Counted from the first letter of the stretch, positions 4,322 through 64,000 are shown. The stretch is DNA of 64,000 nt from Thermoplasmatota archaeon (GCA_038818725.1 JAWAYL010000002.1:1346-65345); one strand, 5' to 3'. Notes: generated by a model from the sequence alone, not told the origin. Numbers and translations are program-made.

Positions 4322-4372
4322 CAAAAATTTTTTCATTAAAAAATAAAATATATTTGGAAGATATTACTCTCA

Positions 4373-5146: not shown

Positions 5147-5167
5147 CAAGTAAATGATAAATAAGAG

Positions 5168-13565: not shown

Positions 13566-13627
13566 GTTTATCCCAAAATATATACAAATTTAATTTATTA
13601 TTTTTGTGGAAAAAGCAGAATAGCAGC

Positions 13628-13695
13628 GTAGCGATTAACTTAATTTCTATTTTCTTTGTTGTAGCATCCCTTCCTGAAAGAGAATCAGGAGGGTC
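13628..13695 (+). repeat. Copy A of a conserved upstream element containing palindrome TCCTGA-N7-TCAGGA
   Basis: GTAGCGATTAACTTAATTTCTAT...GTTGTAGCATCCCTTCCTGAAAGAGAATCAGGAGGG. A near-identical reverse-complement copy lies at 33938-34047. Ends 63 nt before tRNA-Lys. Confidence 0.7.
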
Positions 13696-13757
13696 TTATT
13701 TCTTTACACTGCCAATTTCCACGTGAAAAAATATATATATCAAAGCATTTTTTCATA

Positions 13758-13849
13758 GGGCCTGTAGCTCAGCTAGGTAGAGCACCTGGCTTTTAACCAG
13801 GTGGCCGAGGGTTCGAAATGGCGCTGCCACGAAAATCCCCCCAGGCCCG
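13758..13849 (+). tRNA. tRNA-Lys(TTT) with a probable ~17-nt non-canonical intron in the T-loop
   Basis: Acceptor GGGCCTG/CAGGCCC, D-arm GCTC-AGCTAGGTA-GAGC, anticodon arm CCTGG-CTTTTAA-CCAGG. The T-arm GAGGG-TTCGA[ATGGCGCTGCCACGAAA]AT-CCCCC only closes if the bracketed segment is removed. The insert contains a TGGC-GCT-GCCA hairpin. Confidence 0.6.
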
Positions 13850-14417
13850 CTAGTCTATATATTAGGGAGTGAAAGAAAAAGATTAAATTTCTTTCCTTAT
13901 AGTTGGATGGGATGAAATGGGTTGGAAAGAACGAGTAGAAGATTTGAAGATGAATAAAGGAGCACACTATTGCTCTTTTTGAAGCAACATATGATTGAGG
14001 TAATAAATTTGCAAATCAGCTAAAATTCTAGCTTTTTAAAGGATGAGATAGCTTTATTTTATATCCTTTCTTTTCTAGCCATTATTGGCTAATATAATTG
14101 CTATTTCAATGCTTGAAAATTCTTTAAAAAAATTCAATTAATGCTCTTTTCTCGTTCTAATTTTACCTTCTTTTATTATTTCAGTCGTTACTTTTACACC
14201 CATTTGATATGCTTGGGCTTTATCATGCTATCAACCCTATCGAAAACAAATTGAAAACGGGACAAAAATATTAAACTGTCTTTTCTTAACAAATCATCAT
14301 ATTTTAGGTATGAAGAGTTGCTCTTTCCTCTCTCACTAAGGGAACATTGCAGTAAGGACAAAATCCTTAAATACCAAAAAAGTATTACATTTTGATAAAA
14401 AAGTAATATGTGATAAG

Positions 14418-47299: not shown

Positions 47300-48237
47300 T
47301 TTTCTCTTTTAACAGCAAATTCAGCAATTTCAATTAACTTTTTCTTTTCTTCACTATTCCTTATTCTCTCTATCGCCTTTTTTGCTTTTTCTGCGTAGAT
47401 AAAAGCCATATTTTTTGCATAATCTATTGCCCCTATTTCCTCAAAAAATGAAATTGCTTGTTTAATTTCCTCATCCTTTCCATAAATTTTGAGCAATCTT
47501 TCCTTATCTTTTTTATATCCATATATATAAAGAATTGTTTTCTTTCCTCTCCTTATATCACTTCCAATTGGCTTTCCTATATCTTTTCCAATTACATCAA
47601 GGCAATCATCCCATATCTGAAATGCCATTCCAAGATTTAGTCCATAATTTCTTAAAGCTTCTATTTGCTTTTCTTTAGCCCTTCCAATAATTGCTCCTCC
47701 CATGGCGGCGTGCTCAAACATTCTTGCTGTTTTCTTTTCAATCATCTCAAGAAACTTTTTCTCATCAACATATTCAATCTTTTCAAAACTCATGTCCATA
47801 TCCTGTCCCTCACAGATTTCCTTTGCCATAATTGCAAGATTTCTCAAAATTCTTTTTGCTATTCTATCATTTTCTATATAACTTGCTATTTCAAAAGATT
47901 TCGCAAAAAGAGCGTCACCCGCAAGAATTGCTGTATTCTCTCCATAAATTTTATGAACAGTTGGTTTACCACGCCTCTCCTCATCTCTATCCATTATATC
48001 ATCATGTATAAGGGTAAAGGTGTGAATTAGTTCAAGAGCAACGCCAAAAGGAATTGTATCCATTCCATTTCCTCCAACAGCCTCACATGAAACATAGGCA
48101 ATTATAGGGCGAAGTCTTTTACCTCCCGCAAATGGCAAATGCTTCACTGCATTATATAAATTTTTTGGCTCAATTTCATATAAATAATTTTCTATTCCTT
48201 TTTCAATAGCACTTTTTATTTCTTCTAAATACTCCAT
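47296..48237 (-). CDS. idsA: Polyprenyl (geranylgeranyl) diphosphate synthase
   Basis: LIHDDIMD (first DDxxD) and FQIWDDCLD (second); 313 aa. Confidence 0.85.
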   Translation of the reverse strand: MEYLEEIKSAIEKGIENYLYEIEPKNLYNAVKHLPFAGGKRLRPIIAYVSCEAVGGNGMDTIPFGVALELIHTFTLIHDDIMDRDEERRGKPTVHKIYGENTAILAGDALFAKSFEIASYIENDRIAKRILRNLAIMAKEICEGQDMDMSFEKIEYVDEKKFLEMIEKKTARMFEHAAMGGAIIGRAKEKQIEALRNYGLNLGMAFQIWDDCLDVIGKDIGKPIGSDIRRGKKTILYIYGYKKDKERLLKIYGKDEEIKQAISFFEEIGAIDYAKNMAFIYAEKAKKAIERIRNSEEKKKLIEIAEFAVKREK

Positions 48238-49235
48238 ATTTCCACCTCTCTCAGCTCTTCAATATTTTTGCATCCGGTGAGAAAAAGAGAAAAGAGCAAC
48301 GATTTCCTAAAAATCTCCATTTTTTCTTCCATTGATTTGCTTTTTAAAATGGCGCTTGCGACGCCCGCGCAATCCGCACCAAGAGCTATTGATTTTGCAA
48401 CATCAAGCCCATGCCTTATTCCTCCTGTTGCAACTATTTCAATTCCAGCATTTCTGCATATCTCTGCTATTTCAATTAAGCAATAAGGAGTTGGAATACC
48501 CCAATCCCAGAAAATTTTTCCTATTTCTTCCTGTATTCTATCTTTAATTTTTTTTGCCCTATAGCTTTCAACTGCTGAAAAAGAAGTTCCCCCAGCTCCC
48601 CCAACATCTACTCCAACTATATCTGTATCTAATAATTTTTCAACAACTTTTCTACTTATTCCCGCTCCTGTTTCTTTAACAATAACTGGCTTCTCAAGGG
48701 ATGATGCTACTTCCTTAATCATGTTTATACATCCTTTTGCATTTCTATCTCCTTCTGGCTGAACTACTTCTTGCAGAAAATTTAAATGAATTGCAAGCAC
48801 ATCTGCATCTATCATCTCTATTGCCTCATTCGCTTTATCTATAGCATTTTTCCATTCAAGCAACTGGGGGGCGCCTATATTTGCAATGCGCAATGGTATG
48901 CTATAATTTTTAACCACACTATAACTTTCAACAACCTCACTGTTTTCAAGTCCCGCCCGCTGCGAGCCGACCCCCATTCCAACGCGGAATTTTTCCGCAA
49001 CTTTTGCTATTTTTTCATTTATTTGCTTTGCTTCTTCAAACCCACCTGTCATCCCTGCAATTATTATAGGCATTGAAAGCTTTTTTCCAAAAATTTCCGT
49101 TGAAAGATCAATTTCATTGATATTTATCTCTGGCAGTGCGTCATGAAGCAACATGAAGTCGTCCCAGTAGTTGTATGAATGCATAACATCCTCTTCCATC
49201 ACTATTTCCAGATGTTCCTTCTTTCTATTTTTCAT
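48225..49235 (-). CDS. fni: Isopentenyl-diphosphate delta-isomerase type 2 (FMN-dependent)
   Basis: KKEHLEI..., MPIIIAGMTGG, TIM-barrel FMN motifs VKETGAGIS. Confidence 0.9.
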   Translation of the reverse strand: MKNRKKEHLEIVMEEDVMHSYNYWDDFMLLHDALPEININEIDLSTEIFGKKLSMPIIIAGMTGGFEEAKQINEKIAKVAEKFRVGMGVGSQRAGLENSEVVESYSVVKNYSIPLRIANIGAPQLLEWKNAIDKANEAIEMIDADVLAIHLNFLQEVVQPEGDRNAKGCINMIKEVASSLEKPVIVKETGAGISRKVVEKLLDTDIVGVDVGGAGGTSFSAVESYRAKKIKDRIQEEIGKIFWDWGIPTPYCLIEIAEICRNAGIEIVATGGIRHGLDVAKSIALGADCAGVASAILKSKSMEEKMEIFRKSLLFSLFLTGCKNIEELREVEIWSI

Positions 49236-49256
49236 CTTCCAATTAATGATTTAAAA

Positions 49257-50582
49257 TTATTTATAATTATTTCTACTCCTTGCAAGTGATGTAAATATTC
49301 CAAAAGTGCATAAAATTGCTGAAATTATAAATGCTTTCTCCATTGCATCAACAAAAGAATAATTTTTTGTAAGCAAGATTGCGATTGCCATACTTCCAGA
49401 TTGCCCTATTGTACGCATTGTAGCAATTGTCGCAGATGCAATTCCATATTCCTTACTTTCAACACTTGCCATTATTGCATTTGTATTTGGAGAAGAAAAA
49501 AAAGCAAAACCAAATCCAATTAATGCTAAAATTGCAATTATTATCATTAAATTAAAATTATGTCTAATATAGAAGGCAATTAAAAAAATACCAAGGGCGG
49601 TAAGTGCTATCCCAAATGATGCAATTATTTTTGGATCTATTTTATCAGATAATTTTCCACCAAATGGAGAGAAAATTGCTTGAACAACTGGTTGGGAAAT
49701 AAGAATTAGTCCAGCAGTGCTTGCTGGATAATTTTTTATATTTTGAAGATAGATGCTCAAGAAAAATGATAGAGAAAAAGTGGCAATGTAATGAATTAAT
49801 GCGGTTAAATTTGAAAAAATAAATACAAAATTTCTTCTAAAAATGGAGGGTTTTATTAAAGGATTTTCTATTCTGTTTTCCCATAAAATAAGAGATATAA
49901 AAAGTAAAAGGGAGAGAATTGCAAATATAAATCCCTTTAATGAATTAATTATTGAAAGAGAATATATAAGGAAAATTATTGATACCCCCCATAAAATTGA
50001 GCCAAAATAATCAAATTTCTCATAATTACCAGAAAATTCATATTTAAAATTGCTTAGAAGAAGAATTATTAAAATACATATAAAAATCATAAAGAGGAAA
50101 ATGCTTCTCCATCCAAAATAACTTGTTAAAAATCCTCCTATAAATGGACCGGTTGATAATCCTAAATAGGTAAATGAAACATTTATTCCAATTGCTTTTC
50201 CTCTATCTTCTTTAAAAAATGAGGATAGAATTGCTGTCGCATTTGAAAAAATCATTGCACTTCCAATTCCATGAATTATTCTGAAAATTAAAAAAAGAAA
50301 AGATACATTAGAAATCATTGAAAGAAAAGATGCGATTGCAAAAATTATTATTCCATATAAAAAAATTTTTATTCTTCCATAAATATCACCGATTTTTCCA
50401 AAAGGCAATAGTAAAACAGCAATTGCAATTATATATGATGTTGTAAGCCATCCTAAAAAGAATGAGTCTATACCAAAATCTTTTCCTATGGAAGGAAGGG
50501 CTATATTAATTGATGAACTTGTAAAGGAAACAAGAAATGATGAAAAACTTGTTATAATCAAAATTATATTTTTATCCTTCAT
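49257..50582 (-). CDS. MFS transporter (DHA-like)
   Basis: 12-14 TM helices, GKIGDIYGRIKIF motif A-like loop. Confidence 0.8.
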   Translation of the reverse strand: MKDKNIILIITSFSSFLVSFTSSSINIALPSIGKDFGIDSFFLGWLTTSYIIAIAVLLLPFGKIGDIYGRIKIFLYGIIIFAIASFLSMISNVSFLFLIFRIIHGIGSAMIFSNATAILSSFFKEDRGKAIGINVSFTYLGLSTGPFIGGFLTSYFGWRSIFLFMIFICILIILLLSNFKYEFSGNYEKFDYFGSILWGVSIIFLIYSLSIINSLKGFIFAILSLLLFISLILWENRIENPLIKPSIFRRNFVFIFSNLTALIHYIATFSLSFFLSIYLQNIKNYPASTAGLILISQPVVQAIFSPFGGKLSDKIDPKIIASFGIALTALGIFLIAFYIRHNFNLMIIIAILALIGFGFAFFSSPNTNAIMASVESKEYGIASATIATMRTIGQSGSMAIAILLTKNYSFVDAMEKAFIISAILCTFGIFTSLARSRNNYK

Positions 50583-51591
50583 TTAAAAACTCCTTAAGTT
50601 CATCTATTGTTTCCCTTAACGACTTCACTTCAAAAAATCTTTTCCCTATTATTTCATTGCAGAAAGATTGATAAATTGATGAAATGCATTCCTTTAGCTT
50701 CACTGGCATAGAAGGAGGAGGCCTGACCATTTGCCTCCATTTAATGGCATCAATTTTTTTTGCCTCCTCTACTCCCTTATACCATTCTGTTTTTCTATAA
50801 TATATTCTTGCAATTTCCTTGCTAGCTGGTATACCATTTATTGTAAACCTGCATTCATCTGGTGTACCAACTACATCAACAACAATTAAATTTCTTTCTT
50901 CATCAAATCCAAATTCAATTTTTCCATCTTCATTTATTGCTCCTATTTTTTCCGCTTCCTTGCTTATTATTTTATTTATTTTTTCTGAAATTTCTATAAT
51001 TTCATCTATTTCTTCATTGCTTATATTTGCGATTCTTTTAACTTCTTCCTTGCTTATATATCTATCGATTTCTTCAAGCTTTGTAGAAAATTCATATATT
51101 GGCTCATCTAATTTTTGATTTTCCTCTATTTTTTTAATACCATATTCCTCCATCTTTATTTTTCCTTCTTTTAATCTCTTAAGAAAACTTGAATTGGTTG
51201 TTATAAAATTTCTGTAGATCACTTCAACAGGTATAAGAAAATTTGATTTTTCTTTTGAATAAATTGAATAATCATATTTTCCATTAACTATGCTTGGCTC
51301 AAGAACTCTTAAAAATTTTATTCTCATCCTATTTACTGGTTTCTTAATTTCATTTATATTTTTTATTTCGTTATTTTCAACAATTCCAACATAATGATTT
51401 TTTATTCCTTTTTTATTCATTTTTTCAAAAAAATATGCCCCAATCATGCAAAGTGCCTTACCCTTATTTTCTATTAAATCAGGCATTTCACCCCAGTCAA
51501 AAACTGAGTAGCGATCTGAAAACACAAACTCAGCAATTCCAGGCTTTTCTTTTGCTTCTTCAATAATTTTTAAGTCCTTTACACTTCCCAT
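50572..51591 (-). CDS. purC: SAICAR synthetase (PurC) family protein, long form
   Basis: FSDRYSVFDW, LIPVEVIYRN, GTPDECRF motifs. 339 aa with an internal insertion relative to the usual ~240 aa. Confidence 0.6.
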   Translation of the reverse strand: MGSVKDLKIIEEAKEKPGIAEFVFSDRYSVFDWGEMPDLIENKGKALCMIGAYFFEKMNKKGIKNHYVGIVENNEIKNINEIKKPVNRMRIKFLRVLEPSIVNGKYDYSIYSKEKSNFLIPVEVIYRNFITTNSSFLKRLKEGKIKMEEYGIKKIEENQKLDEPIYEFSTKLEEIDRYISKEEVKRIANISNEEIDEIIEISEKINKIISKEAEKIGAINEDGKIEFGFDEERNLIVVDVVGTPDECRFTINGIPASKEIARIYYRKTEWYKGVEEAKKIDAIKWRQMVRPPPSMPVKLKECISSIYQSFCNEIIGKRFFEVKSLRETIDELKEFLNEG

Positions 51592-51604
51592 AAAGTTATA
51601 TTCT

Positions 51605-52360
51605 TTATCTTTTAAATTTTACTGTTCCTACCCTTATACCTTTAATTGCTTTTGTTAAATTTCCCTTTATTTTTCCATTTATAAAATAGACATCGCAATC
51701 AATTTTCATTGCTTCTTCAACCTTATTTTTTATTCCTCCAGTGACATCAAAAAATCCTTCGCTTGCCTTTATTTTAATTTTTTCATCTATTATATCAATT
51801 AATTTTGCGTCTTTTTCTTTTGGATTTTTATCATAAATTCCATCAACATCCATTAAAAATATAACTTTTTCAGCAGAAAAATTATTTGCAATATAGCTCA
51901 CTATTTGATCTCCAGATAAAATATCAATTCCTTTATCAACCGAAATTGAGACATCTCCATAAAGAAATGGTATAAAATTTTTATTAATCAAATTTTTTAT
52001 AACTTCAATATAGCCATCTATAATTTTTCCTTCTTTAAGAGTAAAAATTGAAGAAGGACAAATAGGAAAAGATGGCAAACCTTTTTCAATAAAAATATCA
52101 ACTATTTTATTATTCAATTCAATCATTGCCCTATGGGTTTTGTAAAATCCTATCGCTTTTTCATTGCTCCATCCCTCCCTTATTTTATATTTTTTTGCCA
52201 CAGGATGACCATAGCTCCCCCCTCCATGAACAATTAAAAATTTTTTTTCTGGATAAAAATATTTAATTTCTTCAGCAATTTGCTCAACAATTTTTTCATT
52301 AAAAGAAAATGGTTTTTCTTTATTACTTATAACGCTTCCCCCGATTTTTATAATTATCAT
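51605..52360 (-). CDS. ipk: Isopentenyl phosphate kinase
   Basis: MIIIKIGGSVIS...LIVHGGGSYGH amino-acid-kinase family. Sits with the PMDh genes. Confidence 0.85.
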   Translation of the reverse strand: MIIIKIGGSVISNKEKPFSFNEKIVEQIAEEIKYFYPEKKFLIVHGGGSYGHPVAKKYKIREGWSNEKAIGFYKTHRAMIELNNKIVDIFIEKGLPSFPICPSSIFTLKEGKIIDGYIEVIKNLINKNFIPFLYGDVSISVDKGIDILSGDQIVSYIANNFSAEKVIFLMDVDGIYDKNPKEKDAKLIDIIDEKIKIKASEGFFDVTGGIKNKVEEAMKIDCDVYFINGKIKGNLTKAIKGIRVGTVKFKR

Positions 52361-52749
52361 TTTTCCACTATTACATCAGCTTCTTTTTCCTTTGCATCTA
52401 TTATAACAATATCACCATCTTTTATAACATCTATATTAATTCCATCAACACACACAATAGCGGAGATTATTGCTCCTGTCGCAACTATTGTTTCAGTTTC
52501 CCTATTTATTATTGCCTTTGGAGCATTTCCATTTTTTTTCAAAGCATAAATTACGTAGGAGCCGACTGTTGAGCCTTTTCCACACGGAAATACAAAAATC
52601 TTATCCTTTATGCTTTTTCCATAAATTGGGCTATTTTTATCAATGATTATGCCTGTTTTTGTATCAACGCTTCCATAAAAGCTAAAAGCTTCTTTGCTCA
52701 CTATTGCTTCACCTCTTACTTTTCCAGGATATATTGTTCTTCCTTTCAT
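52357..52749 (-). CDS. Phosphomevalonate dehydratase small subunit (AcnX swivel-domain, DUF126)
   Basis: GRTIYPGKVRGEAIV...VFPCGKGSTVGSYVIYAL. I place the start at the ATG at 52749 (ATGA overlap with the large subunit). The ORF-track start at 52791 is an extension. Confidence 0.75.
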   Translation of the reverse strand: MKGRTIYPGKVRGEAIVSKEAFSFYGSVDTKTGIIIDKNSPIYGKSIKDKIFVFPCGKGSTVGSYVIYALKKNGNAPKAIINRETETIVATGAIISAIVCVDGINIDVIKDGDIVIIDAKEKEADVIVEK

Positions 52750-53912
52750 ATTATTTCCTCCATTTTTGCAAAAAGAACCTTTTGATTGCAAAAACTTGGC
52801 AAATAATGAGCTGCTTTTGCAGAATTTACACCAGTTCTTTCAAAAATTTTTTCAAGAGGAGAAACTACCATGCATGTATCCGCTACTATTTTTCCTCCCG
52901 CCTTCTCAATTTTCTCGTTTATTCCCATTCTTTCAGCAATTTCTTTAATAGCACGAGATGTACATATCCAAAAATTTCTTTTAGCTTTTCTTTTTTCAAG
53001 AAAATTTGCAATTTCTATTATTTCATTTAGGCTTGCATGAGGACAACCAAAAATTACAATATCAACATCGTCACTATTGCTCAATTTTGAATAAACTTCT
53101 TCAATCTCTTCCTTTCCAACCTCAATTTTTTCCTTTCCCTTAATTTCATATCTCTCCGCTTCTGGCGTTATTTCTTCTACATGATACATCGCAACCGCTC
53201 CGCTCGCCGCCATCGCCGCCCCAAGTTGCTTTAAATCATCAATGCTTGCATCCTTTATTCCTTTAAAATATGGTATTCTATTTTTTATTTCCTTTCCTAC
53301 ATAATAGCCAAGAGATGCAAAATCTGTTGGTGATAAGAGTTTTGCTTTCACATTTATAACAATATCCGGCTCTCTATTTTCATCTAGATGAAGTCCATAA
53401 TAAGGAGTTAAGCCTGTTATTGCTGATGCGAGAGCAGAAGGACCGCCTTCTCGATTTGTTCTTGCTCCTATAACTGAATTTGCAAATGCAACCGCTGATG
53501 ATTCGCTCCATGCTATGTGTTGCCTAAAGCGAGGTAAATTTCCTGCAAGATATGGTGTGCAGGTCGCTGAAATAACAACTCCCATTTTTTTAAAAGCATT
53601 TATTATAGCCATTTGCTTTTCAGCAAATTCATTGCTTATTCCCATTTCCTGCCAGTTTTCTAAATCCATGCCAGCTGGATTTAAATAAGTTAAAATTTTA
53701 ACTTTTGCTTCTTTTGCTATATCTTCAAGAAATTCGAGACCAGCATCCTCTATTGATTTATATGAGACGCCTGCAATTTGAGCTGAAGCAACACGGATCA
53801 TTTTTTCTGCTTTATAAACATCTCCAAGCCTTACAAGCAAGCGGAGCATCCTTGCAACAATTTCTCCTTCTTCACCGTCAAGCATTTTTTCCTGTTCTTT
53901 AGTAAGATACAT
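52746..53912 (-). CDS. Phosphomevalonate dehydratase large subunit (AcnX, DUF521)
   Basis: 388 aa. Conserved Ser/Cys-rich regions (RVASAQIAGVSY...SATCTPYL), the AcnX type IIb large-subunit pattern. Confidence 0.8.
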   Translation of the reverse strand: MYLTKEQEKMLDGEEGEIVARMLRLLVRLGDVYKAEKMIRVASAQIAGVSYKSIEDAGLEFLEDIAKEAKVKILTYLNPAGMDLENWQEMGISNEFAEKQMAIINAFKKMGVVISATCTPYLAGNLPRFRQHIAWSESSAVAFANSVIGARTNREGGPSALASAITGLTPYYGLHLDENREPDIVINVKAKLLSPTDFASLGYYVGKEIKNRIPYFKGIKDASIDDLKQLGAAMAASGAVAMYHVEEITPEAERYEIKGKEKIEVGKEEIEEVYSKLSNSDDVDIVIFGCPHASLNEIIEIANFLEKRKAKRNFWICTSRAIKEIAERMGINEKIEKAGGKIVADTCMVVSPLEKIFERTGVNSAKAAHYLPSFCNQKVLFAKMEEII

Positions 53913-53935
53913 AATTGAATAACTTCAACATCTAT

Positions 53936-54460
53936 TTAAATCATTTTTCTTCTTCTATTTTCTTCTTCAAGAAATCTATAAACTGTTGAATGATTTGCTC
54001 CGTTAAGCAACATTTCCACCGCTTTTTTTGCAATCTGCAAATTCTCAATTTTTCCTATTATTGCAATAGTATGTCCATAAATGCTTATATATGCCCCGCT
54101 TAATTCTTCTATTATTTCTCTCGCCCTTCCATTTTTTCCAATTACTCTGCCAGCAAGTCTTTTTATATGATTTTCCTTTTTTCCAACCCAGTCCCTTATA
54201 TCAACTATTTCAAGATAATAGTCCTCATTAAATAGAAGAATTGCTTTTTCGGGAGAAAATCCTCTTCCAATTGCAACAACAACATTTTCCGCTTCCATCT
54301 CTTTTATTTTATCTTCACTTTCTATTTTAACTTCCCCTATGCTTGAATTAATTTCAAGTTTCACTCCATGGCTTTCTATCCTATTCTTTGTTTCCCCATT
54401 CTTACCAATTAAAACACCTACCCTATCCTGAGGAATTTTAACATATTTCATTTTCATCAC
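53936..54460 (-). CDS. KH-domain RNA-binding protein (Dim2/Pno1-like)
   Basis: Two KH GxxG loops (IGKNGETK, IGKNGRAR). Conserved partner of Rio1 and aIF1A. Confidence 0.8.
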   Translation of the reverse strand: MMKMKYVKIPQDRVGVLIGKNGETKNRIESHGVKLEINSSIGEVKIESEDKIKEMEAENVVVAIGRGFSPEKAILLFNEDYYLEIVDIRDWVGKKENHIKRLAGRVIGKNGRAREIIEELSGAYISIYGHTIAIIGKIENLQIAKKAVEMLLNGANHSTVYRFLEEENRRRKMI

Positions 54461-55154
54461 TCATTATATAATAGATTACATTTTCTTCATCTACATTAAT
54501 GAATTTTTTAAAAAATTTTACTATGTTATATACATCTCTTCTTAAAAATTCAATTGCCATAGGATTTTCTCTTTTAACTGTCTGTCCAACATCTATTATA
54601 ACTGGGTTGTTTCTATAAATTAAGACATTGTATTCAGAAAAATCCGCATGAACAAGCTTTGCTTTTTGATACATTAGCTTTAGATATTTTCTTATTTTCT
54701 CAAAAATTTTCTCAGCATTTTTTATATTTGCATCTTTAAGCAAGGGGGCTGGCTTTGCCTTGCTTCCTATATATTCCATTACAATTACATTTCCTTCAAT
54801 TGCTATTGGCTTGGGCACCCTTACACCTACTTGATGCAATTTTTTAAGATTGCCAAATTCTTTTTTAGCCCATGCAAAAATTATGTTTCTTCTATCAAAT
54901 TTTATTTTTTCTGGTGGGTCATACATAAGATATTTTGATATACTTCTGAAGGTGGCGGTATTTATCCTATAAATCTTTATTGCTATTAAATTTTCTCCAC
55001 ATACTCCTCTAAAAACATTTCCTTCCTTTCCAGTTGAAATTGGAAAATCAATATAATCAATGAAACCATCATTCATCAACTTTGCCAAAGCATCAAGAGT
55101 TGTTTTCTCAAAAACCTCTCCTTCAGTTTTTAATAGTTCCTCAATTTTTTTCAT
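54438..55154 (-). CDS. rio1: RIO-type serine/threonine protein kinase
   Basis: STGKEGNVF, LVHADFSEYNVL, IIDVGQ motifs. Confidence 0.85.
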   Translation of the reverse strand: MKKIEELLKTEGEVFEKTTLDALAKLMNDGFIDYIDFPISTGKEGNVFRGVCGENLIAIKIYRINTATFRSISKYLMYDPPEKIKFDRRNIIFAWAKKEFGNLKKLHQVGVRVPKPIAIEGNVIVMEYIGSKAKPAPLLKDANIKNAEKIFEKIRKYLKLMYQKAKLVHADFSEYNVLIYRNNPVIIDVGQTVKRENPMAIEFLRRDVYNIVKFFKKFINVDEENVIYYIMSDENEIC

Positions 55155-55459
55155 AAAAATCCTTTAAGTGCATCTGGAATAAGATTTTTTTTATCTAAAT
55201 TTATTACCTGAGTTGGAGTATACTGATATATAACATCTGCTTTTTCATCTTGGAAATCCCATGTTTTAATAATGAGTAAATCTCCTGTTTTTATCCATTT
55301 CCTCTTCTTTATTTTTCCAGGTATTCTTGCCATTCTTGTTTTTCCATCCTCACAAATAATTTTTAGTCTGCCTCCTCCCATATGCTGTTCAACAATTGCA
55401 AACATTTCATTTTCTCCTTTTTTTGGCAGAGGTATTCGCTGTTCAACTTCTTCATCCAT
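55151..55459 (-). CDS. eif1a: Translation initiation factor 1A (aIF1A)
   Basis: MFAIVEQHMGGGRLKIICEDGKTRMARIPGKIKKRKWIKTGDLLII OB-fold core. The start is probably the ATG at 55459. Confidence 0.85.
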   Translation of the reverse strand: MDEEVEQRIPLPKKGENEMFAIVEQHMGGGRLKIICEDGKTRMARIPGKIKKRKWIKTGDLLIIKTWDFQDEKADVIYQYTPTQVINLDKKNLIPDALKGFL

Positions 55460-55542
55460 TATAAAAGTTAATTTGTAAATATATATGAAGATATCGTTTT
55501 TCAAAAATAAAAATTTAAATTTATGGATTTGCTATTCTTTTT

Positions 55543-58500
55543 GTGGAAAAATATTTTAGGAGCATAGAAAACAAGGTAAAGGAATGCTACCAGATAGCTA
55601 GCTTAGCAAGAAAAAAAGGTTATGATCCCAAAAAAGAAGTGGAAGTAGCTTTTGCGAAAGATCTTGCTGATAGAGTTGAAGAACTTGTTGGTCCAAAAGG
55701 AATAGCTCATAAAATAAGAAAATATTTAAAAGAAAAGGGAAGAGAAGAAACCGCTATTCAAATAGCTATTGAAATTTCTGAAAATATGAATGGAAGCCAT
55801 GCAGAAATAATTGAGCAAGCAGTGAGGACAGGACTTGCAATATTAACTGAAGGTGTTTTAGTAGCCCCAATAGAAGGAATATCATCTATTGAAATTGGAA
55901 AAAATTTCGATGGAAGCAAATATGTAGATTTATATTTTTCTGGCCCCATCCGCTCTGCTGGGGGAACAGGAGAAGCAATGAGTGTTTTAATTGCAGATGT
56001 TGTGAGAAGAAAGCTTGGATTGGATAGATATAAAGCAACTGACGATGAAGTTGAAAGATATAAGGAAGAAATTCCCCTTTATGATAGAATAACACATTTG
56101 CAATATTTACCATCTCCAGAAGAGATAGAACTAATCATAAGAAATTGCCCAATCTGCATAAATGGCGAGCCAACTGAAAAAGAGGAAGTGATGGGAAAAA
56201 GAGATTTGCCAAGAATAAAAACAAATAGAGTAAGAGGGGGAGCATGTCTTGTAATAGCTGAAGGACTATGCCTTAAAGCGCCAAAACTTATGAAACATGT
56301 CACAAGATTAAAGCTTGAAGGATGGGATTTCCTTAAGAATTTTTCCAAAGAAATAAATGAAGAAAAGGAAATAGAGCCATCTGAAAGATATATAGAAGAT
56401 TTAATAGGAGGGCGCCCTGTGATAAGCCATCCTTCCCGCAAGGGCGGCTTCAGGCTTCGATATGGGCGGGCTAGGACTTGTGGGCTCGGAGCAACTGCGA
56501 TGCATCCAGCAACCATGTATTTGCTCGATGGATTTATTGCGGTTGGAACACAACTTAAAACTGAAAGACCTGGAAAAGGAACGATTGCAACCCCTTGCGA
56601 TAGTATTGAAGGGCCAATGGTTTTACTTGATAATGGAGATTTTCTTCAGATAAATTCTATTGAAGAAGCAATTAAAATTGCTAAAAATGTTAAGGAAATA
56701 GTTGATTTGGGAGAAATTTTAATACCTTTTGGAGAATTTTTTGAGAACAATTCAATTTTGCCCCCCGCAAGTTTTTGCTATGAATGGTGGATTAAAGAGC
56801 TGGAAGAAAAAGCAAATATTGAAGAAGTAAAAATAAAGCATGGAATAGAAAATTTTGAAAATATATCCTTTGAGAAAGCAATTGAGCTATCGAAAGAATA
56901 TGAAATTCCTCTCCATCCTTCCTATAATCTATTTTGGCATGATATAAGTAAGGATGATTTTCAGATTTTGAGAGATTTTATAAAAAAAGCAACATATGAT
57001 GGTAAATTATATCTTGAAAAGGATAAAAAATTGAAGGAGATTTTACTTAATTTAGGAGTTACTCATCTTGAAAGAGATAGATATGTTATAGATAAATATG
57101 CTGAAGTGCTAATTAAATGCTGTGGATTTGAAATAATTGATGGAAAAATTTTTGAAGTTAAAAATAGCTCAAAAGAAGCAATTGAAGCAGTTCAAGAAAT
57201 TCTTGGAATAAAAATAATTCCTAAATCAATTCATAGAATAGGAGCAAGAATGGGCAGACCTGAGAAATCTGCTGAAAGGAAAATGTCCCCAGCGCCGCAT
57301 GTTCTTTTCCCTGTAGGAATTGAAAAAGGAGGAAAGGAAAGAATTTTAAATACAACTGGAAAAATAATTGTTGAGTTAGGGGAAAGAAAATGCGAAAACT
57401 GCGGAAAAATAAGCTATAAAACAAAATGTGAATGCGGCGGCCATACATATTTTACAGGAAATATAAGAAATTTTGAAATAAATGTTCAGGAAGAACTGAA
57501 TAAAGCGGAAAAGAAAATAAATACTCAAGTAAAGAAAGTAAAGGGAGTTATTGGTTTATCCTCTTTAAGTAAAACTCCAGAGTGCATAGAAAAGGGAATT
57601 ATAAGAGCAAAATATGATATTTATGTTTTTAAAGATGGAACGATAAGATATGATATGACAAATATGCCATTAACACATTTTAAACCATATGAAATAGGTG
57701 TTTCTGTAGAAAAATTAAGGGAATTGGGATATGAATATGATTATAAAGGAAATAAGCTTGAGAGAAGTGATCAAATTGTTGAATTGATGCCACAAGATGT
57801 TATACCTTCAAAAAAATGTGGAGAATATTTTTTGAGAGTAGCTAAGTATATAGATGAATTGCTTTCAAAAATTTATGGAATGAATGCATATTACAATGCA
57901 AATAGTTTAGAAGATTTAATTGGTCATTTAGTTGTTGGTTTATCCCCCCATACATCAGCCGGAATTGTTGGGAGAATAATTGGATTTACAGATTTGAATG
58001 TTTGCTGTGCTCATCCTTTTTTCCATGCAGCAAAAAGGAGAAATTGCGATGGTGATGAAGATTCTTTAATGTTGCTTACTGATGTGTTAATAAATTTCTC
58101 AAAAGAATATATACCTGAAAAAAGAGGTGGAAAAATGGACTTGCCTCTTGTTATTGCAACAAGGATTTCTCCAAATGAAATAGATAAGGAAGCATTGAGT
58201 TTAGATGTTTTAAATTCCTATCCTTTAATATTTTATAGAAAAACTTTTAGTTATGCTCATCCAAAAGAAATTGAAAAAGAAATGGATTTAGTTGCTAATA
58301 GGCTGGGAAGCGAAAGGGAATATAAATTTTTTGGATTCACTCATGATACAAGCAGCATAGAGAATGCCCCAAAAACATCTTCATATAAGCTATATGAAAA
58401 TATGGAAGATAAAGTAATGGCACAGATAAATTTAGCAATAAAAATAAGAGCGGTTGATGAAGTAGATGTTGTTACAAAAATAATTGAGAAGCATTTTCTT

Positions 58501-58791
58501 CCTGACTTAGTAGGAAATTTAAAAGCTTTTACAAAACAGCAGTTCAGATGCACAAATTGCAATACAAAGTATAGACGCATCCCTTTAACTGGAAAATGTG
58601 AAAAATGCAAAAGCCAACTATTGCTGACAGTTCATGAAAGTTCTATAAAGAAATATTTAGCAACAATAAAAAAACTAGCTGAAGAATTTAACATACCAAA
58701 CTATACAAAACAGAGAATATTCCTTTCAGAAAAATTTGTTGATTCTTTATTTAAAAATGAAAAAGATAAAAAACTAATAGATTTCTTCTAA
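55543..58791 (+). CDS. polD2: DNA polymerase II (PolD) large subunit DP2
   Basis: NCDGDEDSLMLLTDVLINFS catalytic region and a Zn-finger CENCGKISYKTKCECGGH. 1082 aa with no intein. Confidence 0.9.
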   Translation: MEKYFRSIENKVKECYQIASLARKKGYDPKKEVEVAFAKDLADRVEELVGPKGIAHKIRKYLKEKGREETAIQIAIEISENMNGSHAEIIEQAVRTGLAILTEGVLVAPIEGISSIEIGKNFDGSKYVDLYFSGPIRSAGGTGEAMSVLIADVVRRKLGLDRYKATDDEVERYKEEIPLYDRITHLQYLPSPEEIELIIRNCPICINGEPTEKEEVMGKRDLPRIKTNRVRGGACLVIAEGLCLKAPKLMKHVTRLKLEGWDFLKNFSKEINEEKEIEPSERYIEDLIGGRPVISHPSRKGGFRLRYGRARTCGLGATAMHPATMYLLDGFIAVGTQLKTERPGKGTIATPCDSIEGPMVLLDNGDFLQINSIEEAIKIAKNVKEIVDLGEILIPFGEFFENNSILPPASFCYEWWIKELEEKANIEEVKIKHGIENFENISFEKAIELSKEYEIPLHPSYNLFWHDISKDDFQILRDFIKKATYDGKLYLEKDKKLKEILLNLGVTHLERDRYVIDKYAEVLIKCCGFEIIDGKIFEVKNSSKEAIEAVQEILGIKIIPKSIHRIGARMGRPEKSAERKMSPAPHVLFPVGIEKGGKERILNTTGKIIVELGERKCENCGKISYKTKCECGGHTYFTGNIRNFEINVQEELNKAEKKINTQVKKVKGVIGLSSLSKTPECIEKGIIRAKYDIYVFKDGTIRYDMTNMPLTHFKPYEIGVSVEKLRELGYEYDYKGNKLERSDQIVELMPQDVIPSKKCGEYFLRVAKYIDELLSKIYGMNAYYNANSLEDLIGHLVVGLSPHTSAGIVGRIIGFTDLNVCCAHPFFHAAKRRNCDGDEDSLMLLTDVLINFSKEYIPEKRGGKMDLPLVIATRISPNEIDKEALSLDVLNSYPLIFYRKTFSYAHPKEIEKEMDLVANRLGSEREYKFFGFTHDTSSIENAPKTSSYKLYENMEDKVMAQINLAIKIRAVDEVDVVTKIIEKHFLPDLVGNLKAFTKQQFRCTNCNTKYRRIPLTGKCEKCKSQLLLTVHESSIKKYLATIKKLAEEFNIPNYTKQRIFLSEKFVDSLFKNEKDKKLIDFF

Positions 58792-58825
58792 CAAAAAATT
58801 TAAAAAAATATTATATATATTATTG

Positions 58826-58934
58826 CCCGGCGTAACTCAGACTGGTAGAGTGGCGGACTGTAGTTGCATCTCTTGGGCTATAACCCACCGCCGCGGAAAT
58901 CCGCAAGTCGCTGGTTCAAATCCGGCCGCCGGGA
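58826..58934 (+). tRNA. tRNA-Tyr(GTA) with ~35-nt intron at the canonical 37/38 position
   Basis: Acceptor CCCGGCG/CGCCGGG, D-arm ACTC-AGACTGGTA-GAGT, anticodon stem GCGGA with CTGTAG, then the intron (TTGCATCTCTTGGGCTATAACCCACCGCCGCGGAAA), then TCCGC. T-arm GCTGG-TTCAAAT-CCGGC. Confidence 0.8.
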
Positions 58935-58989
58935 CTAATTTTTATGGGTAAAAATTTATATAGGAAGAATTTCATGAAATTTAGAAAGA

Positions 58990-59718
58990 ATGAGATTGCT
59001 CATAAAGCTTAAAGATGAGAAAAAGCAGGCTATAGATAATTCATATCACAAGTTACAGGGGTTTGTTTATAAATTGATGAAAAATGATTATTCATCGCTT
59101 CATGATAAAAAAGGATACAAGTTTTTCTGCTTTTCAAATATATTTCCTTTTGAAGAAAATAGGATAAGAAATTTTATAATTTCGTCACCAAGCAATGAAA
59201 TTATAAATTCAATTTCAAAAAATATTGAAATAGGAAAATTGGTAAATATAGGAGAAATGCAATTTAGAATTAAAGAATTCTCAATTTTTAATGTTAAAAT
59301 TCCAAAAAGAAATGTTCATATCTGCTGTTCTACGCCTATTATAATAAGAATTCCTGAGGCAAAATATGATAAATATAAAATTCCTGAAGAAGAAAGGAAG
59401 GCAAGATATGTTTATTGGCGTCCGAAATATAGCTTTGAAGCATTTTTAAAGCAACTAACAGAAAATTTAATAAAAAAATTCAATGATTTTTATGGAACAG
59501 AAATTTCAACATATGATTTATTTGAGCAATTTGTTTTTAAAAAAGTTGTTGCAAATGAATTAATCATCAATGGAAAAGCATATCCAGTAATAGGAAGCAT
59601 ATGGGAATTTATATGGCATAATATGGATTCGATGCAAAGAAAAATTATTGAATTTGGATTAGATACTGGCTTCGGAGAAAGAAATAGCTTTGGATTTGGT
59701 TTTGTAAATGTGGTCTAG
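58990..59718 (+). CDS. cas6: Cas6 CRISPR pre-crRNA endoribonuclease
   Basis: RRM-like N-terminus and the C-terminal Gly-rich loop GFGERNSFGFGFVNVV. Confidence 0.85.
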   Translation: MRLLIKLKDEKKQAIDNSYHKLQGFVYKLMKNDYSSLHDKKGYKFFCFSNIFPFEENRIRNFIISSPSNEIINSISKNIEIGKLVNIGEMQFRIKEFSIFNVKIPKRNVHICCSTPIIIRIPEAKYDKYKIPEEERKARYVYWRPKYSFEAFLKQLTENLIKKFNDFYGTEISTYDLFEQFVFKKVVANELIINGKAYPVIGSIWEFIWHNMDSMQRKIIEFGLDTGFGERNSFGFGFVNVV

Positions 59719-59727
59719 ATGATAGAA

Positions 59728-61095
59728 TTACGAAACCAAGGATTTCAAAGAGTTCAGACAAGATTTTAAATCTTCTATAATATCTCCTTCGTACTTCTCT
59801 TTAATGGTATCTTCTGATACTCCGCAGAATCCGTGCCCTAAAATGCTTTTATTTCTTATTTCGTTTAAAGTATCCAATTTGTCTCCTAAACTTTTGACTA
59901 TTTTCATTATTTCCTTCAATTTTGTATCTCTTTCTTTACTTATAAGATATCCAATAACCTTTCTCAAAACAAGGGTATTTGGCTCGCTATAATTTATTTT
60001 ATCCTTTTGGAGAGATTCTAATAATTCCTCATTTTGTTCTATATAATTTTTAAACTCTTCAAAACCTTTAGCCCCTTTTTCTGTGGATATTTTAGTGGTG
60101 TATTCAAAAATAAACTTTAATGATGCTTCATTAAACCTAACTATTCTACCTAGAAAATCGATATAATTTCCTTCCTCAAATTTTATTAATATGTTATTAA
60201 ATAGTTCATCAAGTAAAGCTATCAGCAATAGGAAATAATCTTTAGAAAACTGGTCTACAGAAGAATGCTTCTCCAACTTTTCTAAGTTATTAATAATATT
60301 CTCTATCTCGGATTTTTCTATACCTGAATAGCTTTCTTTGATTTTTTTATAATGGGTAATTGCTTTTTTAAAATCGAATAAATATCGATAGTACTCGCCT
60401 CGAAGTCTTTCTAATTCTTTATTATCAAGCAAGCCATATTTTTCTGCCAACTCGATAGCGCCTTTATATTGATGTTTCTCTTTTAAACTTTTATAAGTTT
60501 CTGTAAGAAAGGCTTTGTATATTTTATCACCTACTCTTAGTAATTTACACTGGTTGCTACCTGCTGGTAAATAAATCGCTTGAACTAAATTTCTGAATTT
60601 TGAAACACAATTAAAGAGTAAAGCTTCATTCTCTGCCGGTGTGCCACCAGTTAGAGAAACAAAATATATATCTGCGGAGAATGATTTATTGAAAAATTTT
60701 TCATAAAATTCATACATTTTATCTCTATCTGCAGGATTATCATTTATCTGAATTACACTAGTATTTTCACCCAACAATTTTTTTAGTATTTGAGCTATAT
60801 ACCAAGTATCTTGAGGATGGAAGGGTACCTGCTCTGTAGCAAATAAATAAATATGTTGGAGTTTGTAATCCTGGGTAGTATCGATATAATTAACTACAGG
60901 CCCTAGAAGTAAAGGCTCTAATTTTAAATTAACCCATTTATTCTGATTAAATATTTCTTTGCTTTTTTCATATACATTTTCATCTTTTTTAAAATAAGGT
61001 TTGCCATTTATCCCCAGATCACTTATACCAACATTTGCATATAGTATAGCATTTTTCAACCTTTCTTTCATATTCACCCCCTTATTTTTACCCAT
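59728..61095 (-). CDS. csx1: Csx1/Csm6-family CARF-HEPN accessory ribonuclease
   Basis: 455 aa. N-terminal Rossmann-like CARF region, and C-terminal HEPN Rx4-6H motif (LNEIRNKSILGHG). An alternative start is the ATG at 61071, just 2 nt downstream of the csm5 stop (no overlap). Confidence 0.7.
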   Translation of the reverse strand: MGKNKGVNMKERLKNAILYANVGISDLGINGKPYFKKDENVYEKSKEIFNQNKWVNLKLEPLLLGPVVNYIDTTQDYKLQHIYLFATEQVPFHPQDTWYIAQILKKLLGENTSVIQINDNPADRDKMYEFYEKFFNKSFSADIYFVSLTGGTPAENEALLFNCVSKFRNLVQAIYLPAGSNQCKLLRVGDKIYKAFLTETYKSLKEKHQYKGAIELAEKYGLLDNKELERLRGEYYRYLFDFKKAITHYKKIKESYSGIEKSEIENIINNLEKLEKHSSVDQFSKDYFLLLIALLDELFNNILIKFEEGNYIDFLGRIVRFNEASLKFIFEYTTKISTEKGAKGFEEFKNYIEQNEELLESLQKDKINYSEPNTLVLRKVIGYLISKERDTKLKEIMKIVKSLGDKLDTLNEIRNKSILGHGFCGVSEDTIKEKYEGDIIEDLKSCLNSLKSLVS

Positions 61096-62153
61096 CCTAA
61101 TGGGTATTCATTATTATAACTCACTCTTCTTGTCTTAGGAAATTTCAAAACAAATTTTCCTGTTTTTGGATTTCTCCCGAGACCGAGTTTTTTTCTTAAG
61201 TTCCTACCTTTTTCCCATTCTTCAAATTTCTCCGCTTTCAAGCCTATGGTTTTTGCATGCCATCCTCCACCCCATCCAAGATTTAATATCATCTCATTTT
61301 CCTTGCAATTTTCTATTTCATCCTTCAATTTATAAAATACATTTTTTGTTACATTAGAAAATTTATAATTTAATTGTTTTAGAATTATCTCTTTAGAAAA
61401 TTCACTGCATATTTTGAAAATTTCTTCTTTTTTCATATACTCTTTTACTAGATTCTCTTTAAAGATGTGTTTATTTAACAGTTCATTGTCTATCCTAAAA
61501 TAAAAGCTCGTCTTTTCCCCTCGCTTTATACTTTCTATGTATGTGGGAATTGTTCGAGGATTCCCAACAATTTTTATTTCATTTATCTCTAAAGAGGATA
61601 AAGAAAAAGGAAGAGTATCTGAGATTCTTAATGCTCTTAAAATATCGTAATGTGGTTCTTTACCGAATATTTCTTTTTCTAATCTTATACAAGCTTCATT
61701 TGGTTTTATATATTTCTTTTCTAATAATTCTTTACAGTAATCAAACACTTTTTCTTCACTTACTATTTTCCATAAAAGTGCTGTTCTTATTGCACCTTTT
61801 ATTGAACTTCCGGGAATATAAGGAAATCCCTCAATATTTTTAATAAATTCTCTAATCTGAGGCTTTGTGTTTCGTATTCTATCAAAATCTATCTTCATAG
61901 GAATTGAATACTGCGAGAAATCGGTAGGGTTTAAGTTGTTTTTCTTTAAAAAATCCTCCATTTTAAAATCTTCTTTTTCTTTATTAATTTCTTCTACGAG
62001 CGAGATATTATTTTCTATACAATACCCGGCAAATTTATCAAAATCCATTTTTATAAAATTTTTGTTTTCAATAACAAAATCTATCGATGTAAAAACATTC
62101 CCATTACCTACATGTAAGGGTGTAAGAACCTCTAATTCTAATCTATTCTTCAT
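61074..62153 (-). CDS. csm5: Csm5 (Cas7-family RAMP of type III-A effector)
   Basis: LEVLTPLHVGNG N-terminus, PYIPGSSIKGAIRT RAMP motif, G-rich loop LNLGWGGGWHAKT. 359 aa. Confidence 0.75.
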   Translation of the reverse strand: MKNRLELEVLTPLHVGNGNVFTSIDFVIENKNFIKMDFDKFAGYCIENNISLVEEINKEKEDFKMEDFLKKNNLNPTDFSQYSIPMKIDFDRIRNTKPQIREFIKNIEGFPYIPGSSIKGAIRTALLWKIVSEEKVFDYCKELLEKKYIKPNEACIRLEKEIFGKEPHYDILRALRISDTLPFSLSSLEINEIKIVGNPRTIPTYIESIKRGEKTSFYFRIDNELLNKHIFKENLVKEYMKKEEIFKICSEFSKEIILKQLNYKFSNVTKNVFYKLKDEIENCKENEMILNLGWGGGWHAKTIGLKAEKFEEWEKGRNLRKKLGLGRNPKTGKFVLKFPKTRRVSYNNEYPLGWVKIRG

Positions 62154-63038
62154 TTACTCACCTTTAATTTGGATAGCATAGGCTTTTCCATATATAGAGT
62201 ATCCTTCGTAATGAATTAATTTTCCCTCAGGCAACTTTTCAAATACACTCCCTTCTTTTATCATTTTTATTCTCGGTTTTCTTTCCTTTCCTATCCATCC
62301 TCCTTTTAAAACAAAATCCCAAGATGAGGCGCCAGAAAATAAACCTTTTTCGTTTTCATCTGGATAGAATAACGAGAGAAGCATATACTTGTTTCCATTT
62401 AGAGGGGTACGGAGGGTTATATTTTCTTCTTTAAAGCTAAATAGTCCATAACCCCATGTTCTTTTTCCGCCAAACCCTTCCTCCTGTAGTAACCTCAAAG
62501 AAGAGATTATTTCTCTATAAATATTTTCTTCGCACTCAATAGTAAACCAGAGACCACATTTTTCATTAAATTTTATCAAACCTACAAAAAAGAAATCAGA
62601 CTTTTTGGTTTCGCGGTCGAGATAAACTTTTGGTATTTGTTGCTCTTCATATAGATATTTTTTATTTAGAATGTTTTCTATATCTGATTCATTTAATTTT
62701 TCATAATTTATTATCTTCTCAAAATAATCTTTTGATATAAACTCCACTTTTTTCCAATCTTTTGGTAATTCTCCGTCAAAATTTATTTTTACTCTTGGTT
62801 TTGGGAAATATATATTGTTTTCATCGAATGGGTAAGCAGAAGAAATTCTTACTTTTTCAAATTTTTTAACAAACTCATCTGTCTCTTCTTCAGTATGGAG
62901 TAAGGAATATGCATTTATAATTCCATTAAATATAGTATCAGAATGAATTATTGGGGAAGATTCTTCCAGTCCAATCCCTATTTCTCCTATATGGAGAGGA
63001 GACGTAAAGTTTAATTTAATTATCTTCATATTTTTCAT
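62154..63038 (-). CDS. csm4: Csm4 (Cas5-family RAMP)
   Basis: LNFTSPLHIGE N-terminus, SSAYPF motif, C-terminal G-rich loop GFGGKRTWGYGLF. 294 aa. Confidence 0.8.
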   Translation of the reverse strand: MKNMKIIKLNFTSPLHIGEIGIGLEESSPIIHSDTIFNGIINAYSLLHTEEETDEFVKKFEKVRISSAYPFDENNIYFPKPRVKINFDGELPKDWKKVEFISKDYFEKIINYEKLNESDIENILNKKYLYEEQQIPKVYLDRETKKSDFFFVGLIKFNEKCGLWFTIECEENIYREIISSLRLLQEEGFGGKRTWGYGLFSFKEENITLRTPLNGNKYMLLSLFYPDENEKGLFSGASSWDFVLKGGWIGKERKPRIKMIKEGSVFEKLPEGKLIHYEGYSIYGKAYAIQIKGE

Positions 63039-63041
63039 TTT

Positions 63042-63785
63042 TTATGATTTTATAAAATCTATTGCTTTTTCTATGGTTTCAAACTCTTTTGAAGCGTTTT
63101 TATTATCTTGAAGATAATATTCTATCTTTTTTACAATGATTTTCTGCTGTTTTCTGATTTCGATTTTTCCATACCCACGAGAGCCGTGCCCTCCAAGATA
63201 ATCATCCTCCAACATTTTTAAGCATCTTTCAAGATTTTTTAAGTCTTCTTTTGCTTGCTCTTTATCCTCTATATTGTAAATAATTTCAAAATTGAAAACG
63301 CTTCCTGCTGGAATTCTTTCTATTTGTCTGGGTGTAGCTTGAGTGGTTATTCTATCAATCACGTTTTCAAACTTCCATTCTGTATATTTCAGCCCAGTAT
63401 CTATATTTTCTAATTTTTTTCTACTTTCTTCTGTTAAGTGCAAATCTCTAACGATAATTCTTGATGGAGACTCACCTGTCGCTGAGCCAAAAATTCTACA
63501 AACAGGACATTTTTTGGCCTCGTTTCTTGTCTGGCATTCGTGCCTTTTAATGGTATTATCTATATAAATATTAAAAAAATTTTCATCCTTGGCATTCGCT
63601 ATTTCCCACAGACTTCTTAATTTTCCTTTCAAAGAACTTCCTGGTATGTAAGGATAATCTGTTATTGGATCTCTTACAACAGGACTATCTATACCACCAA
63701 TTTTCATTGTTTCTCTGCTTGCACCCACATGCAAACCAGTTTTTAATTCCATCTCTCCTTTTATAATTATTTTCCCTAATAGCAT
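63042..63785 (-). CDS. csm3: Csm3 (Cas7-family backbone subunit)
   Basis: GKIIIKGEMELKTGLHVG, PYIPGSSLKGKLRS, CPVCRIFG. The true start is probably the ATG at 63785 (MLLGK...). The track ORF uses a TTG at 63821. Confidence 0.85.
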   Translation of the reverse strand: MLLGKIIIKGEMELKTGLHVGASRETMKIGGIDSPVVRDPITDYPYIPGSSLKGKLRSLWEIANAKDENFFNIYIDNTIKRHECQTRNEAKKCPVCRIFGSATGESPSRIIVRDLHLTEESRKKLENIDTGLKYTEWKFENVIDRITTQATPRQIERIPAGSVFNFEIIYNIEDKEQAKEDLKNLERCLKMLEDDYLGGHGSRGYGKIEIRKQQKIIVKKIEYYLQDNKNASKEFETIEKAIDFIKS

Positions 63786-63786
63786 T

Positions 63787-64000
63787 TTAATCACCACCTC
63801 CTGCCAACTTATGGTATGCAACCACCCCTCTCAAAAAATCACAAATCTTTTTGAAATCTTCAAAGGTATTAACCTCATTGATCGCATTATCTATTATCCT
63901 TACCAACTCGGCTGTTGATTTATTTTTTGCAGAAGTATATGCTAAAAGGGGCTTTAATTTTAATAGTTTATTTCTATCAAACTTTTCTTTTCCTTCATCT
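63787..64000 (-). CDS. csm2: Probable Csm2 small subunit, C-terminal part (gene continues beyond window end)
   Basis: My manual minus-strand translation ends ...ELVRIIDNAINEVNTFEDFKKICDFLRGVVAYHKLAGGGD*, helical. It sits immediately upstream of csm3, as in the III-A gene order. Confidence 0.4.
   Translation of the reverse strand, partial: DEGKEKFDRNKLLKLKPLLAYTSAKNKSTAELVRIIDNAINEVNTFEDFKKICDFLRGVVAYHKLAGGGD

Follow-up and report, generated by a model that had tools for sequence, protein, structure and literature searches.

A probable complete type III-A CRISPR-Cas locus between tRNA-Tyr and aspS in an uncultured Thermoplasmatota archaeon, and its I-A counterpart in a sister strain

Which CRISPR-Cas system lies at the right end of a 64,000-nt stretch of Thermoplasmatota archaeon DNA (GCA_038818725.1, JAWAYL010000002.1:1346-65345; hereafter the window), is it whole, and how did it come to stand beside a tRNA gene? 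An initial annotation had placed at positions 58,826-64,000 the effector genes of a type III-A (Csm) system together with a Csx1 nuclease, directly after tRNA-Tyr and cut off by the window's edge. Our analyses indicate, with a probability of roughly 0.9, that a complete and apparently functional type III-A locus of an uncultured archaeon has its tRNA-proximal half at this end of the window. A nearly identical sister strain carries a type I-A effector cassette at the same position.

Subtype and completeness of the locus

Profile searches agreed gene by gene with the order first proposed, in which a partial csm2, csm3, csm4, csm5 and a gene for a CARF-HEPN protein lie on the minus strand and cas6 is convergent with them (Table 1). 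The family models for Csm1 to Csm5 were all passed, which bears out the III-A interference module with a CARF-HEPN RNase that had been claimed, and the equivalog scores lie so far above their curated cutoffs that the gene calls cannot be put down to chance. The Csm2 small subunit is a signature of III-A, as opposed to the Cmr5 subunit, and Csm3 has kept its catalytic aspartate (D33 in GGIDSP). Subtypes III-B and III-D were considered and rejected, as the Cmr and Csx7 models scored far below their cutoffs while the Csm models passed.

The csm2 gene crosses the right window edge, and the initial annotation had predicted that Cas10 and an array would be found past it. Both were found on contigs that match the window at 99.99-100% identity, and the absence of cas10, which the initial annotation had named as grounds for refutation, does not occur. 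Exact-protein look-up of Csm4 retrieved two Logan contigs, L001 and L002, which come from different runs, and a third contig (L008, 186 kb; JAWBSB010000001.1) belongs to an NCBI metagenome-assembled genome (MAG), GCA_038843325.1. L001 differs from window positions 52154-64000 by 1 mismatch in 11,847 nt, L008 matches both L001 and window positions 60891-64000 at 100% identity, and the gene order agrees between the two independent Logan assemblies. In window orientation, the layout runs PolD, tRNA-Tyr, cas6 (+), the block of CARF-HEPN, csm5, csm4, csm3, csm2 and cas10 (-), the block of cas4, cas1 and cas2 (+), a leader, an array of 30 repeats and aspS (-), with approximately 12 kb between tRNA-Tyr and aspS. 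The cas10/csm1 gene lies directly beyond the edge on L001 and L008 and encodes 791 amino acids (TIGR02578, 639.9 bits against a cutoff of 170). The HD and GGDD motifs, which the initial annotation had proposed to look for, are present at residues 15-16 (LLHDIGK) and 597-600, and CxxC pairs occur at 385 and 408. The full csm2 gene (L001 4385-4957) encodes 190 amino acids and passed the cutoffs of PF03750 and TIGR01870, the latter a hypothetical-equivalog domain model, with 43-56 bits for TIGR01870. All seven III-A genes are full length and their reading frames are tightly packed or overlapping; array and cas6 are both present at the locus. An N-terminal extension of Csm2, approximately 100 residues long and rich in Lys and Glu, lies outside the family model, which matches residues 105-187.

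The best solved match for both Cas10 and Csm3 was the Csm complex of Thermococcus onnurineus (PDB 4UW2, 6IQW, 6MUR/6MUU and 6O7x), likewise an archaeal III-A system of the thermophile type. Residues 9-784 of Cas10 aligned to 10-778 of T. onnurineus Csm1 (E 1e-109), and both proteins have the HD and GGDD motifs; the GGID(S/N)PV active-site loop of Csm3 aligned with that of chain 6iqw_C (E 6.5e-57), although Csm3 lacks part of the insertion of its T. onnurineus counterpart and the alignment falls into two stretches. The two systems differ in host (Thermoplasmatota here, Thermococci for T. onnurineus), in the Cas4-Cas1b-Cas2 module that the present locus has of its own, and in its CARF-HEPN protein, which resembles no solved protein at the sequence level. 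The III-A loci of Staphylococcus epidermidis and Streptococcus thermophilus (cas10-csm2-csm3-csm4-csm5-csm6) have the same effector order, with the CARF-HEPN gene right after csm5, and their proteins fall into the same families. The present locus departs from these bacterial ones in its convergent cas6 at the far end, in an adaptation module that contains Cas4 and is transcribed divergently from cas10, and in a repeat of the archaeal AUUGAAA-tag family, which is found widely among archaea of vents and hot springs. A single-protein pattern scan of GTDB genomes returned no close relative of Cas10.

The cas4-cas1-cas2 operon passed the Cas4, Cas1b and Cas2 equivalogs. An AT-rich leader of approximately 100 nt lies on the cas2 side of the array; the Logan contigs end inside it, 44 nt short of the first repeat, which rules out that they end within a repeat. 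On L008 (11437-13393) the array comprises 30 repeats of 30 nt with spacers of 36-39 nt. Read from cas2 towards the array, the repeat is GTTAAAATCGGACTAAGGTAGGATTGAAAT and ends in an ATTGAAA(T/G) tag of the kind usually seen in archaeal Cas6 substrates. The degenerate repeats next to aspS and the conserved leader next to cas2 are consistent with this orientation. Comparison of the spacers with the window and the fetched loci gave no match except one 16-nt chance hit. In the L008 array, adjacent spacers 18 and 19, as well as 28 and 29, are identical, and the last full repeat is separated from aspS by a stretch with two degenerate repeat remnants.

Among 93 loci, the exact 30-nt repeat was found only in L008 and in one contig of the sister strain (L009). 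A GTDB scan (L014-L093) found the repeat family GTTNAAATCNGACTAANNTAGNATTGAAA in Archaeoglobaceae, Aenigmatarchaeota, Nanoarchaeia, other Thermoplasmata and Mnemosynella MAGs from vents and hot springs. Since the degenerate pattern is so widespread in other archaea, the repeat identifies no donor. The family also turns up on numerous short contigs assigned to an Anaerolineae bacterium, perhaps through faulty binning.

Table 1 Features at the right end of the window (window coordinates)
Feature	Position	Strand	Product	Evidence
tRNA-Tyr(GTA)	58826-58935	+		Rfam RF00005 52.7 bits; ARAGORN with intron option
cas6	58990-59718	+	242 aa, predicted pre-crRNA endoribonuclease	TIGR01877 100.1 bits (cutoff 58.65); PF01881; PADLOC Cas6b 3e-49
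CARF-HEPN gene	59728-61095	-	455 aa	PADLOC Csx1 3.3e-70, CARF_HEPN 1e-65
csm5	61074-62153	-	359 aa, Cas7-like RAMP	TIGR01899 251.1 bits (cutoff 38.3); PADLOC Csm5 6e-75
csm4	62154-63038	-	294 aa, Cas5-like RAMP, Cas10 partner	TIGR01903 239.7 bits (cutoff 55); PF17953 Csm4_C
csm3	63042-63785	-	247 aa from ATG, Cas7 backbone, predicted target-RNA endonuclease	TIGR02582 255.5 bits (cutoff 90)
csm2 (partial)	63787-64000	-	small subunit, C-terminal 70 codons	PF03750 49.6 bits; TIGR01870 43 bits

The tRNA-Tyr gene is the left boundary of the CRISPR-Cas insertion/deletion described below. As the initial annotation had held, it bears an intron and the locus starts 55 nt downstream of it, at cas6; both Rfam and ARAGORN run with the -i option find the gene, whereas ARAGORN at default settings misses it. 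The 35-nt intron sits in the anticodon loop at about 58862-58896 (ARAGORN -i), the Rfam span is 109 nt (58826-58934), and no CCA is encoded. For csm3, the mechanical open reading frame (ORF) opens at TTG 63821, upstream of the ATG from which the 247 residues are counted. No array was detected in the 64-kb window by TRF and direct-repeat scans, and neither cas1 nor cas2 occurs in it, as had also been noted.

The CARF-HEPN protein and the predicted working of the locus

What, then, is the protein encoded between cas6 and csm5? Its NCBI annotation is hypothetical protein. Counted from the first ATG it has 455 residues, and from the ATG at 61071, which is favoured by NCBI and by the alignment of homologues, it has 447. 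The PADLOC Csx1 and CARF_HEPN profiles span residues 15-451, a CARF motif (SLTGGTPA) occupies residues 147-154, and a HEPN motif of the R-x6-H type runs from R414 to H421 (R414-NKSILG-H421). SLTGGTPA and RNKSILxH are invariant in 5 homologues with 41-48% identity. The genes of the homologues stand directly after a RAMP gene, and three homologues (P0243-P0245) carry PF09659 and PF09670. A word-indexed search returned 7 matches and an exhaustive search 508 cluster representatives at E<=1e-3; a family of that size is an established one, so the protein is not an orphan.

An AlphaFold2 model of the protein had a predicted local distance difference test (pLDDT) score of 83.5 and a predicted alpha/beta N-terminal domain. 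The top Foldseek match was Thermus thermophilus Csm6 (8jh1/5fsh; E 3e-10, probability 1.0), aligned over the full length with approximately 475-486 columns, followed by Enterococcus italicus Csm6 and S. thermophilus Csm6'. The N-terminal domain also superposes on the CARF ring nucleases Sis0811 and SSO1393, and the first solved structure named Csx1, that of the Marinitoga Csx1-Crn2 fusion (8y7g), ranked only lower down (E 7e-5). Like T. thermophilus Csm6 (TTHB152; 5FSH, and 8JH1 with cA4), the modelled protein has an N-terminal CARF domain, a helical linker and a C-terminal HEPN domain. The protein is therefore predicted from its modelled fold to be a Csm6-family ancillary RNase, nearer to Csm6 than to the solved Csx1 proteins. 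Both names, Csx1 and Csm6, belong to one superfamily; the name Csx1 used at first was right about the CARF-HEPN family, in line with the PADLOC Csx1 profile, and less apt in that the fold and the Pfam families of the homologues are nearer Csm6. The annotation can accordingly be corrected from hypothetical protein to Csm6-family CARF-HEPN RNase.

Several results weigh against the reading of the locus as a complete, functional III-A system with such an RNase. The assignment of the CARF-HEPN protein rests on PADLOC profiles, motifs and predicted fold: the Pfam Csm6 HEPN model PF09670 reached 23.9 bits over residues 292-433, below its cutoff of 27, no NCBIfam model matched, and phmmer found no sequence match in the PDB. 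Identity between the model and T. thermophilus Csm6 is 13-15%, and the template modelling (TM) score is only approximately 0.44. The adaptation genes and cas6 fit type I-B-style models (Cas1 scored 433 bits against the I-B model) and not III-A-specific ones. The locus contains no separate ring-nuclease gene, one of the genes that the initial annotation had suggested looking for nearby, and two leader-proximal spacers had no exact core match in IMG/VR. In addition, all sequences come from metagenome assemblies and the evidence is computational. The locus would add one more complete III-A system from a poorly studied thermophilic Thermoplasmatota lineage.

Genes, gene order, reading frames, motifs, array and leader were observed, and from established type III-A biology we infer how they may work together. 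Transcription of the array would start from the cas2-proximal leader, and Cas6 would cut the 30-nt repeat GTTAAAATCGGACTAAGGTAGGATTGAAAT 8 nt short of its 3' end and so give the CRISPR RNA (crRNA) its 8-nt 5' tag, AUUGAAAU. Cas10, Csm2, Csm3, Csm4 and Csm5 would assemble on this crRNA. When a complementary transcript pairs with it, Csm3 (D33) is expected to cleave the RNA in 6-nt steps, and the same pairing would lead the Cas10 HD domain to cut single-stranded DNA and the GGDD palm domains to make cyclic oligoadenylate. Binding of the oligoadenylate to the CARF domain of the Csm6-like protein might then switch on its HEPN RNase. Expression of the locus, the cyclic oligoadenylate species, RNase activation and any ring-nuclease activity of the CARF domain are likewise put forward by analogy.

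Origin of the locus between tRNA-Tyr and aspS

How the locus came to lie at this position can be approached from relatives in which the position is empty. The closest homologues of PolD carry a Thermoplasmatota annotation, in line with the source of the window. Three of them (L006, L003 and L007, whose PolD is 91%, 88% and 86% identical to that of the window) have PolD, the intron-bearing tRNA-Tyr and then, convergent and without intervening cas genes, aspS; the gap from tRNA-Tyr to aspS is approximately 45 nt in L006 and L007. In a fourth, L010, PolD and aspS are convergent with a gap of approximately 300 nt that is free of cas genes; the tRNA-Tyr gene was confirmed in L003, L006 and L007. 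The locus of approximately 12 kb is, on this comparison, a lineage-specific insertion/deletion placed exactly between tRNA-Tyr and aspS. Because the slot is empty in four relatives, the locus was most likely gained in the present lineage, and its horizontal acquisition is plausible.

Alternatively, the locus might have been ancestral at this slot, with separate deletions in the relatives. Loss of CRISPR-Cas loci is frequent, and in L003 approximately 690 nt of apparently non-coding sequence separate tRNA-Tyr from aspS (13394-14083), perhaps the scar of a deletion or an insert that has decayed; a further contig, L011, terminates 18 nt past aspS, and the assembly may have broken there at an array. 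Against this, all four informative relatives are empty, down to the short gap seen in L006 and L007, no repeat or cas remnants were noted in the L003 segment on visual inspection, and parsimony favours one gain over several clean deletions. We regard ancestral presence followed by deletion as unlikely, and prefer a gain in this lineage.

A gain could have taken the form of a mobile island that a site-specific integrase inserted into the 3' end of tRNA-Tyr. The colinearity of the window with L003, its nearest CRISPR-less relative, extends over 45705-58945 and ends 11 nt past the tRNA, which would suit such an insertion, as would the absence of the locus from the four relatives and the GC content of the cas genes (0.27-0.30), slightly under the window mean of 0.323. 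On the other hand, each of the 11 genes from tRNA-Tyr to aspS is a cas gene, and no integrase, transposase or casposase gene is present; window positions 58826-58990 and the aspS-array junction share no direct or inverted repeat of at least 8 nt; and filled and empty genomes have the same intact tRNA-Tyr gene. With neither an integrase nor an att-like repeat found, we consider tRNA-targeted, integrase-mediated insertion of such an island quite improbable. The integration hotspot invoked by the initial annotation is half supported, by the presence/absence difference at the tRNA among relatives.

Further differences among the relatives occur near aspS and elsewhere. L010 carries another, defence-like insertion (5007-9812) between DUF1614 and aspS, with genes for a Dnd-associated protein, an SMC-like ATPase and an SNF2/DEAD helicase, and the surroundings of aspS look like a variable defence region. 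L006 has an N6-methyltransferase gene (Eco57I-like) and a 240-aa ORF (3186-5460) between the AcnX-swivel and amino-acid kinase genes, both absent from the window.

Exchange of the effector cassette in a sister strain

Is the III-A cassette a fixed part of this locus? A sister strain, represented by MAG GCA_038863095.1 (L009 and L095) and by an independent Logan assembly (L096, SRR21619491), suggests otherwise. Its flanks are 99.72% identical to those of the III-A strain (L008/L094) on the aspS side and 99.83% on the PolD side. In place of the III-A cassette (cas10-csm2-5-csm6, 7.0 kb, GC content 0.299), L009, L095 and L096 have an I-A cassette of cas3-cas8a-cas11a-cas7-cas5a (5.4 kb, GC content 0.362), located at L009 14963-20469, L095 8730-14260 and L096 8737-10233, which is equivalent to the window from 59719 onward. 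Both strains have the same Cas6 protein (99.76% at the DNA level), a cas4-cas1-cas2 operon of 98.99% identity, an identical leader and an identical repeat, and one breakpoint of the exchange is the stop codon of cas6, while the other lies about 30 nt before the ATG of cas4. The arrays have one old spacer in common near the trailer (spacer 26 of L008, the terminal spacer of L009); their other spacers differ.

Effector genes are known to be exchanged, sometimes between types, while the adaptation module with the array and/or cas6 stays fixed (Koonin & Makarova 2019, PMC6452270). The III-A/I-A pair is an in situ exchange of effector modules, a clean new example of that known phenomenon and not a new principle; relative to the cases treated there, the exchange here is between strains whose flanks are 99.7-99.8% identical. 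By this comparison cas6 is part of the backbone shared with the I-A variant and not specific to the III-A module. Its assignment to the III-A module in the initial annotation was accurate as to place and convergent orientation, and needs amending in that the gene also belongs to the backbone of the I-A variant. Within the aspS-side flank of 11.3 kb, 20 of the 32 mismatches between L008 and L009 fall within approximately 430 nt of the DUF1614 gene (9299-9726), a cluster that suggests a small recombination patch.

It is possible, and we propose it tentatively, that cas6 together with cas4-cas1-cas2, the leader and the array forms a fixed docking platform, onto which whole effector cassettes are swapped by recombination at the edges of the platform within one hot-spring population. 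If this were true, the pair would offer a natural system for learning how one crRNA supply serves two effector types and whether anti-CRISPR pressure drives exchange. Its wider value lies in a three-state polymorphism at a single slot, which may be empty or hold III-A or I-A. That the III-A cassette is instead an inactive or decaying remnant under replacement by the I-A cassette, as the presence of I-A at the same position in a nearly identical strain and the lack of IMG/VR protospacer matches for the two spacers might be taken to indicate, is very improbable, given full-length III-A genes, intact HD, GGDD, Csm3 D33 and HEPN R-x6-H motifs, and an array that is longer than that of the I-A strain (30 versus 24 repeats) with spacers almost all different, which points to ongoing turnover.

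Elsewhere in the window, a tRNA-like gene lies at 13758-13849 (+) with the anticodon loop CTTTTAA (Lys, UUU). Rfam gave it 31.4 bits with the T-arm skipped, and ARAGORN made no call there, even with the intron option; the gene resembles a tRNA-Lys with a T-arm insertion of approximately 17 nt, possibly a non-canonical intron.

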